Source of the DNA: an uncultured bacterium
GTDB lineage: Bacteria > Eisenbacteria > RBG-16-71-46 > CAIMUX01
DNA length: 64,000 nucleotides
Reading direction: 5' to 3'
Assembly: GCA_964473865.1 (NCBI GenBank)
Contig: CAYYQN010000003.1
Coordinates: forward strand, 2,545-66,544
Shown here: one piece after another, positions 60,471 to 63,036 of the stretch
Layout: the number at the start of each line of letters is the position of its first letter
Numbering within the stretch: position 1 is the first letter of the stretch
Notes under the pieces: model-generated
The model's input: the letters and a program-made list of their open reading frames with translations, nothing else
Databases searched by the model: none
What the model was told of the DNA's origin: nothing
Position numbers and translations under genes: made by a program

Positions 60471-61232
60471 ATGGGTCGTGTGATCGCCGTGGCGAATCAG
60501 AAGGGCGGCGTCGGCAAGACGACGACGGTCGTCAACCTGGGCGCGTCCATGGCGAAGAGCGGGCAAAGGGTCCTTCTGGTGGACCTGGACCCCCAGTCGA
60601 ACGCGACCTCGGGTGTTGGAGTATCCGGCACCCCGCCCGGCAACTCCACCTACCCAATCCTCGTGTCCGGTAACTCGTTACGCCCGATCATCCAACGAAC
60701 TCCGTTTGAAGGGCTTGACCTGGCGCCGGCGACGCCCGAGCTGGCGGCGTCCGAACTGGAGTTGGTGGACCAGGAGGGGAGAGAACACCGGCTGCGAAGG
60801 GCGCTTCAGGATGTGCGGGCGGACTACCACTACGTCTTGATCGACTGCCCTCCTTCGTTGGGTCTCCTGACCGTAAATGCTCTTGTGGCCGCCGATTCGG
60901 TCATGATCCCTCTCCAGTGTGAGTACTACGCGCTGGAGGGTCTGGGTCATCTCATGGATACGGTCCGTCGCGTCCGAGAACGCCTGAATCCCCAACTGGA
61001 TGTCGAGGGTGTCTTGCTGACAATGTTCGACGGTCGGCTGAATCTGTCTGTCCAGGTGGCGGAAGAGGCCAGGCGGCACTTCGGGGGCAAGGTGTACGCC
61101 ACAATGATTCCGAGGAACGTGAGGCTCGGCGAGGCCCCGAGCTTCGGCAGGCCGGTCGTGGCGTATGACCCTGGTTGCCTCGGCGCCGCGAGTTACGTTA
61201 GCCTGGCAAAGGAGATGCTCGGCGATGGCTAA
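60471..61232 (+). CDS. parA: chromosome partitioning ATPase ParA/Soj
   Basis: MGRVIAVANQKGGVGKTTTVVNLGASMA (deviant Walker A), LVDLDPQSNATSG, YVLIDCPPSLG. The track ORF start at 60360 is an upstream extension. Confidence 0.9.
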   Translation: MGRVIAVANQKGGVGKTTTVVNLGASMAKSGQRVLLVDLDPQSNATSGVGVSGTPPGNSTYPILVSGNSLRPIIQRTPFEGLDLAPATPELAASELELVDQEGREHRLRRALQDVRADYHYVLIDCPPSLGLLTVNALVAADSVMIPLQCEYYALEGLGHLMDTVRRVRERLNPQLDVEGVLLTMFDGRLNLSVQVAEEARRHFGGKVYATMIPRNVRLGEAPSFGRPVVAYDPGCLGAASYVSLAKEMLGDG

Positions 61233-62097
61233 GAAAGTCCTGGGGCGCGGTTTGGATGTGCTGATCCCGCGTGATGCGACGGAATCGGGGCAACCGAGCG
61301 GCGAAGTCGTAAAGAGAGTTCCCACCCACCTCGTGCGACCGAACCCGCGGCAACCCCGACAGCAGTTCAACGATGACCGGCTGAACGAATTAGCCAACTC
61401 GATCCGCGAGAAGGGGATCATCGAGCCGCTCATCGTGCGCCTCGGGGATGCCGATAGCTACGAGCTCATTGCCGGCGAGCGTCGGCTTCGTGCCGCACAG
61501 CTCGCGGGGCTCGAGGAGGTTCCGGTCCTGGTCCGCGAATCGGCGGATCGAGAGAGCCTGGAAATCGCCTTGATCGAGAATCTTCAGCGGGAAGACCTGA
61601 ACCCCGTGGAAGAGGCACAGGCCTACTTGCGGCTGTCCGAGGAGTTCGGGCGGACGCACGCGGAGATCTCACAGGAGGTTGGCAAGGATCGCACGACCAT
61701 CACGAACTTCTTGCGAATTCTACGGTTACCTCAGACGGTCCTGGATGATGTTTCACGTGGAACACTGTCGGTGGGGCACGCGCGCGTTCTCCTTGGAGTC
61801 GAAGACCCAGGACGCCAGCTCGACCTGGCCCGACGCATGGCTGCCGAGGGCTGGAACGTCCGTCAGGCCGAGCGATTCGTGTCCCAGATCAACAAGCCGG
61901 CCCGCAAACAAGGGAACAGGGCCGCAGCGACTCCACGCGGCCGCGATGTCGTGCGGATTGAGGAGGCGCTCCGATACGCTCTCGGCGCGGAGGTCCACCT
62001 GGATCATGGGCCGAAAGGCGGACGGATCGAGATCCGCTACGGGGACAACGACGAGTTGGAGCGGATCCTGGATGTGCTCGGGATCCAGATCCATTGA
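61225..62097 (+). CDS. parB: chromosome partitioning protein ParB/Spo0J
   Basis: An AAGGAG RBS precedes a start that overlaps the parA stop (ATGGCTAA). ParB box II GERRLRAAQLAG. HTH. An internal parS-like site. Confidence 0.9.
   Translation: MAKKVLGRGLDVLIPRDATESGQPSGEVVKRVPTHLVRPNPRQPRQQFNDDRLNELANSIREKGIIEPLIVRLGDADSYELIAGERRLRAAQLAGLEEVPVLVRESADRESLEIALIENLQREDLNPVEEAQAYLRLSEEFGRTHAEISQEVGKDRTTITNFLRILRLPQTVLDDVSRGTLSVGHARVLLGVEDPGRQLDLARRMAAEGWNVRQAERFVSQINKPARKQGNRAAATPRGRDVVRIEEALRYALGAEVHLDHGPKGGRIEIRYGDNDELERILDVLGIQIH
61749..61764. promoter_or_regulatory. parS site inside parB coding sequence
   Basis: TGTTTCACGTGGAACA has one mismatch to the TGTTTCACGTGAAACA consensus. Intragenic parS in parB is common. 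Confidence 0.7.
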
Positions 62098-62262
62098 GCC
62101 GGCGGCGGCGCCGAAGCGGCGGGTGTGCCTCGAGCGGGGTGCTGGAGCGATAGGCTGATGTTTCGCTCCACGACATCTCGTTCCAGGGGGACGTCAAGCA
62201 GGGAACACAAAGTCACCATTCACATTGCATCCTCGGCCAGCGATAGGACGTTTCACCGAACG

Positions 62263-62544
62263 ATGTCCTGGCGGGCCGTGCGGATGTGGATCGGCGCTGG
62301 GATCGCGCTCGCGCTCGTGGTGGTCGTGGGGATTTGCGGGCTCTTCGGTTGGGTCGGGTCGATGCATCGGGTGCGGACGCTTCAATCGGAGAACGACTCG
62401 CTCAGAGTCCAGTTCCGAAGGCTGGGAGAGCTCGAGACGAATCTGGCCAGGATGTCCGAGCTGAATGAGCAGATGCAGAGGATGTTGGGGGTGGATCCGT
62501 CGGCGCTCCAGTCGGAAGCCGACTCTCTATCCGGTGTCGAATAG
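62263..62544 (+). CDS. small membrane-anchored coiled-coil protein (93 aa) between parB and bactofilin
   Basis: MSWRAVRMWIGAGIALALVVVVGICGLFGWVG (TM), then heptad-like VRTLQSENDSLRVQFRRLGELETNLARMSELNEQMQRML. No catalytic domain follows. Confidence 0.45.
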   Translation: MSWRAVRMWIGAGIALALVVVVGICGLFGWVGSMHRVRTLQSENDSLRVQFRRLGELETNLARMSELNEQMQRMLGVDPSALQSEADSLSGVE

Positions 62545-62586
62545 GGCTCGCGCGGGCTGCGGCAGCGGAGGCCCGGGGAGGACGCG

Positions 62587-63036
62587 ATGTTCGGGAAGGG
62601 AAGCGAAGTGACGAGCGGGGACAAGCACGGGCACTCGATCCTGCAGGAAGGGATGGTGGTCGAGGGAACCCTGGAGGCCAAGGGAGACGTTCGTCTGGAT
62701 GGCCGCCTGATTGGTAAAGTAGTTGTCTCAGAAAGACTTACAATTGGCGCCTCCGGTGTGCTGCATGCCGAGGTGGAGGCCGGAGAGGCCATCATCATGG
62801 GAACGGTGGAGGGTAGCGTTCGGGCACAGCGCCGCCTCGAGCTTCGCAAAGGGGCCCGCGTCGTCGGGGATATCGCGTCGCCGATTCTGATGATCGAAGA
62901 GGGGGTCCACTTCCACGGCAACTGCAACATGCGATCCGGCGATTCTGCCGCGACGGGGCTTGACTACGACCCTCTCGCCTCGAAGGTCGCCGACGGCTCC
63001 ACTGAGACCGGCAGGTTCGAGAAGATCTACCAGTAG
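62587..63036 (+). CDS. bactofilin (DUF583 polymer-forming cytoskeletal protein)
   Basis: Repetitive beta-helical windings: VVEGTLEAKGDVRLDGRLIGKVVVSERLTIGASGVLHAEVEAGEAIIMGTVEGSVRAQRRLELRKGARVVGDIAS. Disordered termini. Confidence 0.75.
   Translation: MFGKGSEVTSGDKHGHSILQEGMVVEGTLEAKGDVRLDGRLIGKVVVSERLTIGASGVLHAEVEAGEAIIMGTVEGSVRAQRRLELRKGARVVGDIASPILMIEEGVHFHGNCNMRSGDSAATGLDYDPLASKVADGSTETGRFEKIYQ

Follow-up and report, generated by a model that had tools for sequence, protein, structure and literature searches.

A conserved gene between parB and a bactofilin gene of an uncultured Eisenbacteria-like bacterium: a candidate bactofilin adaptor related to the N-terminal module of LmdC-type M23 peptidases

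What is a small membrane protein doing when its gene is lodged between parB and a bactofilin gene? The question is raised by a stretch of 64,000 nucleotides (nt) from an uncultured bacterium (contig CAYYQN010000003.1, positions 2,545 to 66,544; the whole stretch is called the window below), in which genes for ParA, ParB, a small protein and a bactofilin follow one another. A sequence-only reading of the window had described the small protein as 93 amino acids (aa) made of one transmembrane (TM) helix and a coiled coil, and had proposed it as a membrane tether or adaptor for a bactofilin that would, as in Myxococcus, position ParA- and ParB-associated complexes. The gene identities of that reading, their coordinates, their order on the + strand and the start of the bactofilin gene 490 nt after the parB stop are all borne out here; the length of the small protein and part of the reasoning about its role are revised. 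Sequence comparison indicates that it is a relative of the N-terminal part of LmdC-type M23 enzymes, and we favour, with modest confidence, the reading that it is an LmdC-derived, M23-less and bitopic adaptor which docks on the bactofilin and is co-transcribed with parAB. The features on which this argument turns are as follows.

62158..62544, + strand: M23-less LmdC-like gene, 128 aa plus stop, assigned from its homologues, the alignment of their starts, the ratio of nonsynonymous to synonymous substitution rates (dN/dS) and homology to the N-terminal module (N-module) of M23 enzymes.
62209..62268, + strand: cytoplasmic segment, residues 18-37, KVTIHIASSASDRTFHRTMS, which aligns with the beta-hairpin of M23-bearing relatives; putative bactofilin-docking site.
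62287..62355, + strand: transmembrane helix, residues 44-66, Kyte-Doolittle mean 2.67, predicted local distance difference test (pLDDT) 93-95 in the AlphaFold2 (AF2) model.
62356..62496, + strand: periplasmic helix or leucine-zipper-like coil, residues 67-113, with heptads, the invariant block ENDSLRVQFRRLGELE and dN/dS of about 0.10.
62587..63036, + strand: bactofilin gene, 149 aa, GGAGG 7 nt upstream, PF04519 match at E 1.4e-25 over residues 17-113.

The first step towards an answer concerns where the small protein begins. The NCBI public gene call (P0002) is also of 93 aa and starts at the ATG at 62263, and an independent Logan call (P0001) gives 128 aa. The ATG at 62158 is preceded by GGAG 10 nt upstream; about 20 homologues begin at an aligned MF/VF position which matches this ATG and not that at 62263; and the 35 residues ahead of the 93-aa start (105 nt, 62158-62262) are conserved, with the consensus HTVSVHVTSSxSGRTFHRT. 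Because the homologue starts align, the upstream residues are conserved and dN/dS is low in codons 1-46, the protein is very probably 128 aa long, from ATG 62158. Thus the single TM helix and the leucine heptad helix of the sequence-only reading stand, whereas its length does not, and the 93-aa model leaves out a conserved cytoplasmic segment which is, by homology, the part that would dock on the bactofilin.

The longest reading frame has 21 homologues at E <= 1e-20, mostly of 169 aa. Over codons 1-115, dN/dS is 0.12-0.21 (Nei-Gojobori, the window copy against three relatives), and synonymous sites are close to saturated; the cytoplasmic part (codons 1-46) has 0.19-0.43 and the periplasmic helix the lower value listed above. 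With this many homologues and ratios of this size a chance reading frame is excluded, and the sequence evidence indicates a gene conserved under purifying selection; the concern that the frame might have no conserved counterpart in relatives therefore falls away. Pfam and NCBIfam gave no significant match for the small protein (NCBIfam gave none for the bactofilin or for the lipoprotein fragment at the window's end either). A sub-threshold Pfam match of the coil to Wtap (E 8e-4) is coiled-coil noise, and the JGI name ‘PilO’ for the fragment P0017 is backed by no profile. As a separate observation, many M23-less proteins of the window's clade begin MF(G/R)S(K/T) (window 62158-62172), like the bactofilin MFGK, despite having a TM helix of their own.

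The identity of the small protein emerged from a family profile of its conserved 115 residues, searched against 1.84 billion representative proteins. This gave 55 hits: short proteins like the query and many of 250-305 aa, the latter matching profile positions ~7-114 at their own N-terminus. In all of those tested (10/10) a Peptidase_M23 domain stands at the C-terminus, and its zinc motifs HxxxD and HLH are intact. Two hits proved spurious on inspection: P0025 is a repeat adhesin of 4832 aa, and P0060 is a TPR-like repeat protein. Aligned by hhalign, the M23-less and M23-bearing families match at 99.8 % probability (E 1.2e-29, 103 gapless columns), so what the sequence-only reading had seen as the N-terminal architecture of M23 partners without a peptidase domain is true homology, going beyond similar architecture. 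The AF2 model of the M23-bearing protein P0031 (mean pLDDT 85.9) has hairpin strands at 16-21 and 30-35, a TM-plus-coil helix at 36-107, then a disordered linker and the M23 domain, which superposes on DipM, ShyA, EnvC, Csd1/Csd2 and LytM. Foldseek with this M23-bearing model returned LytM/M23 domains only, and no solved structure covering the N-terminal module.

The catalytic domain is missing from the window at every level at which we looked for it. Pfam finds no Peptidase_M23 match in the small protein; tblastn finds no M23 domain at the locus or in the 64-kb window in any frame; and the flanks of the M23-less loci contain no M23 gene. Given the hhalign homology, the LmdC architecture of the M23-bearing relatives and the parB–bactofilin slot which both forms occupy, the small protein is, as judged from sequence, a homologue of the N-terminal module of LmdC-type M23 enzymes whose catalytic domain has been lost. 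Since the C-terminal M23 (LytM) domain is absent, it would be classed outside the M23 enzyme family and as a member of the N-terminal module only.

The predicted topology is that of a bitopic inner-membrane protein with a cytoplasmic N-terminus. The N-side of the TM helix has nine K/R against two D/E, and on the C-side acidic residues prevail; AF2 predicts for the small protein one continuous helix (38-109) spanning the TM segment and the coil. In the periplasmic helix, leucines fall at 75/82/89/96/110 and an asparagine at 103 in heptad spacing; the protein ends 15 residues past the coil, and members of the clade close with a short low-complexity tail. A comparison of 16 sequences, each sharing 53-68 % identity with the window protein, shows 23 invariant residues from position 75 to position 111, of which 14 fall outside the heptad core. 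The block ENDSLRxQFxRLxxLE in this helix is common to M23-less and M23-bearing relatives, and this sharing, together with the invariant non-core residues, is an argument that the two forms have the same conserved periplasmic partner. A PDB profile search with the small protein found nothing beyond generic leucine zippers, K2P channels and MreC, none of them better than E ~0.01.

The neighbouring bactofilin is canonical in its core, the PF04519 match spanning positions 1-97 of the 98-position profile. Its N-terminus reads MFGK (62587-62598), and MFGK or MFGR opens 9/9 subfamily bactofilins examined. Bactofilins are known to carry an N-terminal membrane-targeting sequence, MFSKQAKS in Caulobacter, with the global consensus MFSKKKK and the key residues M1, F2, K4 and K7 (PMC12448750). 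The premise that bactofilins lack a membrane anchor of their own, from which a need for a tether had been argued, therefore does not hold for bactofilins in general, and the start of this subfamily resembles the known targeting sequence. Compared with that consensus, position 7 of the window bactofilin is not basic (the second lysine is missing) and acidic residues follow. At the other end of the protein, most subfamily bactofilins have a tail (F/Y)E(K/R)(I/T)YQ outside the Pfam domain (FEKIYQ in the window, 63016-63033), which might be a second interaction motif; the bactofilins compared for their termini were those of loci L001, L004, L006, L011, L015 and L017, and the tail is looser in L006, L011 and L015.

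How fixed is the gene arrangement? We recovered 16 loci through the small protein, or X for short, or through its M23-bearing relatives, and scored them with family hidden Markov models and positive controls. Immediately upstream of X lies parB in 16/16 loci, and immediately downstream lies a bactofilin gene in 15/15 loci with downstream sequence. The trio of parB, small gene and bactofilin gene is thus conserved, and, with parB upstream in all 16 loci, the alternative that bactofilin neighbours elsewhere in the clade are unrelated to parAB is contradicted. The parB-X-bactofilin order is found with M23-less proteins of 128-169 aa (the window, P0004, P0009/L004, P0016, P0022, P0026, P0027, P0037 and P0073), some of them only ~25-35 % identical to the window protein, and with the M23-bearing proteins P0031, P0032, P0033 and P0035. 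In several loci, among them L006, L008 and L011, X overlaps or abuts one of its two neighbours, parB or the bactofilin gene.

The simplest history, on these sequence comparisons, would begin with an ancestral parA-parB-lmdC-bactofilin block whose lmdC gene later lost the M23 domain. A neighbour-joining tree of the N-module (drawn without support values) scatters M23-less groups among M23-bearing ones, which hints that the domain may have been lost more than once, independently. The M23-less proteins standing among M23-bearing ones in that tree are P0029, P0038, P0039, P0046, P0050, P0065, P0073 and P0074; among these eight, P0073 is the only one for which completeness and a following bactofilin gene were verified.

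We also sampled 46 metagenome loci by starting from the bactofilin. L018, whose bactofilin is 60 % identical to that of the window, has the full parA-parB-module-bactofilin order; in L022, L023 and L024 the bactofilin genes (~34 % identical proteins) follow parB directly, with a gap of ~40 nt and without an LmdC-like gene; and none of parB, the module or an M23 domain was found in the 23 other bactofilin loci with >900 nt of upstream sequence. The parB linkage therefore belongs to this bactofilin subfamily and not to bactofilins generally. Further searches added little: the A2 scan of the genome collection gave one true relative (the Candidatus Eisenbacteria metagenome-assembled genome (MAG) of L004), its Shewanella match (L005) being a spurious coil match; the A2 metagenome scan gave 188 pattern matches, of which 0 were confirmed; and the word-indexed homologue search with A3 gave 28 proteins, all M23-less, a set which is unusable for counting M23-bearing against M23-less forms. 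In L017 (3179-4814, an ENA contig), parA and parB are split into several frames; with the downstream genes for the small protein and the bactofilin both intact, these are probably frameshifts of long-read assembly rather than pseudogenes.

LmdC gives the template for what the small protein might do. Its N-terminal cytoplasmic beta-hairpin, in Hyphomonas and Rhodospirillum, binds BacA (KD ~15 uM) and is needed for recruitment, and bactofilin-M23 gene pairs are found in 226 species (PMC10945521). As in the window, the lmdC gene of Hyphomonas neptunium and Rhodospirillum rubrum adjoins a bactofilin gene (PMC10945521), and the M23-bearing relatives of the window protein have the complete LmdC architecture. 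The differences are that proteins of the window type have no M23 domain, and hence no hydrolase activity; that LmdC has a rigid coiled-coil/M23 unit, whereas here the coil is continuous with the TM helix and is followed, in M23-bearing relatives, by a disordered linker; and that the window pair, which is likened to LmdC by architecture and gene context, sits downstream of parAB. Because the small protein is homologous to the N-termini of bactofilin-associated M23 peptidases, a partner or adaptor role remains its natural reading, even though two premises of the original proposal, the missing bactofilin anchor and the Myxococcus parallel, are not supported.

We therefore propose, somewhat above even probability, the following sequence of events. 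The bactofilin would polymerise on the cytoplasmic face of the membrane, aided by its own N-terminal MFGK peptide, and residues ~18-37 of the small protein, the equivalent of the LmdC beta-hairpin, would dock on the polymer, marking and reinforcing its membrane attachment. The TM helix would run on into the periplasmic leucine-zipper-like helix, which probably dimerises, and the invariant and largely non-core surface ENDSLRVQFRRLGELE would be presented to a periplasmic or cell-wall partner. In this way the position of the bactofilin could be relayed across the membrane with no hydrolase activity in the adaptor itself. That the small protein binds the bactofilin, dimerises, has a periplasmic partner and serves cell shape or the envelope rather than segregation is in each case inferred from the comparisons above.

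Several points weigh against this proposal. The AF2 model of the small protein itself has no hairpin, residues 1-37 being of pLDDT 48-64 with zero strands; the hairpin is assigned because residues 18-37 align gapless (hhalign) to strands 16-21 and 30-35 of the P0031 model, where the pLDDT is 79-92, and not from the protein's own model. What connects the small protein with LmdC is a set of uncharacterised metagenomic M23 proteins of LmdC architecture, likewise encoded next to a bactofilin gene. The search for M23 genes spans 64 kb, and a separate full-length LmdC or M23 partner may be encoded elsewhere. Finally, parB linkage that stays strict at an N-module identity of ~25-30 % could mean a functional tie to ParB.

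The third of these points leads to the rival that survives best, which we rate as possible but improbable: that the small protein tunes a full-length M23 enzyme encoded elsewhere, either by forming a zipper heterodimer with it or by competing for bactofilin sites. It fits well that the periplasmic helix is the most constrained part of the protein and is common, in its ENDSLRxQFxRLxxLE block, to the M23-bearing relatives, and there is precedent for a non-enzymatic paralogue in Csd2, which accompanies Csd1 in Helicobacter pylori (PMC9507126; PDB 5j1l). Csd2, Csd5 and Csd7, around CcmA and Csd1, are indeed similar to the window protein in being non-catalytic membrane-associated partners of a bactofilin/M23 system (PMC9507126; PDB 5j1l). 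Csd2 keeps a degenerate M23 fold, whereas the window protein is without the entire domain. Csd5 and Csd7 are not known to be related in sequence to the window protein. Standing against this tuning role is the empty result for M23 genes in the 64-kb window and in the flanks of every M23-less locus, as is the fact that M23-less and M23-bearing forms fill the same slot, which resembles replacement and not duplication.

A bolder extension of the adaptor proposal, which we hold to be doubtful, is that the LmdC N-module acts as an autonomous trans-envelope adaptor whose conserved periplasmic surface recruits a separate partner, several lineages having long retained it with no hydrolase domain and always beside parB. 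The bactofilin module would then couple origin- or ParB-linked expression, or even ParB itself, to a site in the envelope, and its core function could dispense with peptidoglycan hydrolysis. The segregation genes to which such coupling would apply are these.

60310..60325, strand not assigned: parS-like palindrome upstream of parA, TGTTCCACGTGGAACT, 1 mismatch to TGTTCCACGTGGAACA.
60471..61232, + strand: parA, a ParA/Soj-type ATPase of 253 aa, AAA_31 at E 1.5e-62 and CbiA at E 4e-29.
61225..62097, + strand: parB, 290 aa with ParB_N, HTH_ParB and ParB_C, in an 8-nt overlap with the parA stop.
61749..61764, strand not assigned: second parS-like palindrome, within parB, TGTTTCACGTGGAACA, 1 mismatch to TGTTCCACGTGGAACA.

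The ParABS features are thus all present near the origin: a ParA ATPase, a three-domain ParB and two parS sites, the last having 0 matches in 100 shuffles as a control. Upstream of parA on the + strand lies an origin-proximal block of rnpA, yidD, yidC, jag/khpB and rsmG, and in the syntenic locus L001 the block is adjoined by dnaA. Terminator prediction gave no site from parA through to the end of the bactofilin gene; parB and the small gene are 60 nt apart, and 42 nt separate the latter from the bactofilin gene. The four genes that start with parA are probably one origin-proximal, co-transcribed block. With 82 % identity between the window ParB and the ParB of a Candidatus Eisenbacteria MAG, the organism belongs in or near this uncultured phylum. 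An Rfam scan of the whole window gave no match. Within the upstream block, the Jag/KhpB reading frame (57599-59389) has a long Arg/Pro/Ser/Gly-rich low-complexity stretch between its Jag_N and KH/R3H domains, and local GC reaches 72-74 % at about 58000-58750 in this region.

It is in this setting that the Myxococcus parallel of the sequence-only reading has to be judged: the bactofilin would be a scaffold that positions ParABS, as BacNOP does, and the small protein its membrane tether, possibly in contact with ParB. We consider this quite unlikely, although the case for it has substance. The linkage to parB holds in 16/16 loci, deeply diverged ones included; parB and X overlap or abut in several of them; the ParABS system is complete and origin-proximal, with its two parS sites; and Bdellovibrio co-transcribes parA, parB and a bactofilin gene, such a role having been speculated there (PMC7186360). 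Moreover, the membrane affinity of an MFGK start that lacks the second lysine and is followed by acidic residues may be weak, so that a client with a TM helix could matter. In Caulobacter crescentus such a client is known, and it is a precedent for the docking proposed above as well: PbpC, a membrane-bound partner of BacA through its cytoplasmic tail, can replace the membrane-targeting sequence when overproduced (PMC12448750). The window protein, however, has no sequence relationship to PbpC, which is a penicillin-binding protein.

Against a positioning scaffold, bactofilins have a membrane-targeting peptide (PMC12448750), a putative form of which is conserved here, and the Myxococcus parallel had been drawn to the wrong bactofilin. 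In Myxococcus xanthus, bacM lies downstream of parAB, is co-transcribed with it and is followed by a lipoprotein gene; BacM is a cell-shape factor on which segregation does not depend, whereas ParABS is positioned by BacNOP with PadC, which is encoded beside bacNOP and needed for ParAB recruitment (PMC5703909, PMC3899335). For BacNOP-PadC, a bactofilin system too, a link to ParA and ParB has been demonstrated (PMC5703909). It consists of PadC, which has a disordered N-terminus and a ParB-like nuclease domain, and three bactofilin paralogues, encoded away from parAB; the window, in contrast, has a canonical ParB and a single bactofilin, whose neighbour is LmdC-like and not ParB-like. Neither a PadC-like gene nor a second bactofilin gene was found in the window, and the relatives of the small protein are cell-wall hydrolases, not DNA-segregation factors.

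The Bdellovibrio bacteriovorus bactofilin Bd3904 belongs with BacM in this comparison, being encoded in a parA3-parB-bactofilin co-transcript for which a segregation role has only been speculated (PMC7186360, PMC10547168). Both loci are like the window in having the bactofilin gene downstream of chromosomal parAB, and the Myxococcus locus also in having a lipoprotein gene next; unlike the window, neither has an LmdC-like gene between parB and the bactofilin gene, an arrangement of Myxococcus/Bdellovibrio type that recurs in the metagenome loci L022-L024. Since parAB–bactofilin adjacency is known in these other lineages, adjacency alone is no sign of a ParAB-positioning function, and the link to ParA or ParB that we observe in the window is co-location in one probable operon.

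Returning to the small gene itself, we find it very improbable that the frame lacks a function, whether as what is left of a truncated, decaying peptidase gene or as a mis-called frame. The window copy (128 aa) is indeed the shortest full-length verified member, when most of its close relatives have 169 aa, and Pfam and NCBIfam have no significant match to it; but the dN/dS of 0.12-0.21 at near-saturated synonymous sites, conserved blocks that are invariant across proteins only 48-68 % identical overall, and the keeping of M23-less forms in several lineages that share only ~25-35 % module identity all speak for a functional protein. Least likely of all is a divisome zipper protein of FtsB/FtsL/DivIC type that stands beside the bactofilin gene by chance, for which a similar size and architecture (short N-terminus, one TM helix, leucine zipper) and the generic zippers among the PDB profile matches could be cited, but which is contradicted by the absence of a DivIC or FtsL Pfam match at E <= 0.01 and of any NCBIfam match, by the strong full-length homology to M23 peptidase N-termini and by a locus that lies outside any division or cell-wall gene cluster.

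Downstream of the bactofilin gene comes one further gene, which the window cuts short.

63502..64000, + strand: N-terminus of a lipoprotein gene, with signal peptide and lipobox LWTC; roughly 600 aa, its C-terminal FGE-sulfatase domain lying beyond the window end.

The lipoprotein is 74 % identical between the window and L001 (9416-11218); its gene also follows the bactofilin gene in L001, L011 (2575-4311) and L017 (6391-8130), with a gene for a TPR protein next after it in L001 and L017, and is absent in L016. It resembles GldK, GldJ and EgtB weakly, far below the family cut-offs. A non-coding gap of 465 nt (63037-63501) follows the bactofilin gene, with a promoter-like TTGACA-17-TAGATT at 63355-63383, and the lipoprotein gene is probably a separate transcript. 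We considered this FGE-sulfatase lipoprotein as the periplasmic partner of the small protein and set it aside, as it is kept only in the closer clade and has an apparent promoter of its own.

Parts of this picture are already published, namely the bactofilin-M23 module and the adjacency of parAB and bactofilin genes. In the open-access literature we found no description of a conserved LmdC homologue cut down to its docking, TM and zipper module, or of the fixed parB-lmdC-bactofilin arrangement. The public gene call can also be corrected, as the 93-aa model drops the probable bactofilin-binding segment.

Bactofilins and their M23 peptidases have been proposed to form a conserved morphogenetic module whose action is linked to local hydrolysis of the cell wall. 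An M23-less lineage in which the bactofilin and the docking, TM and zipper module persist under strong purifying selection is a natural separation-of-function variant of that module, and suggests that the N-module may act alone, either by anchoring or organising the bactofilin or by recruiting another periplasmic factor, for which the invariant periplasmic block is the place to look. As the host is an uncultured Eisenbacteria-like bacterium, the practical value of the finding is as a lead for tractable systems; for the family, it is an arrangement of parB, LmdC-like gene and bactofilin gene that is fixed across deeply diverged relatives.

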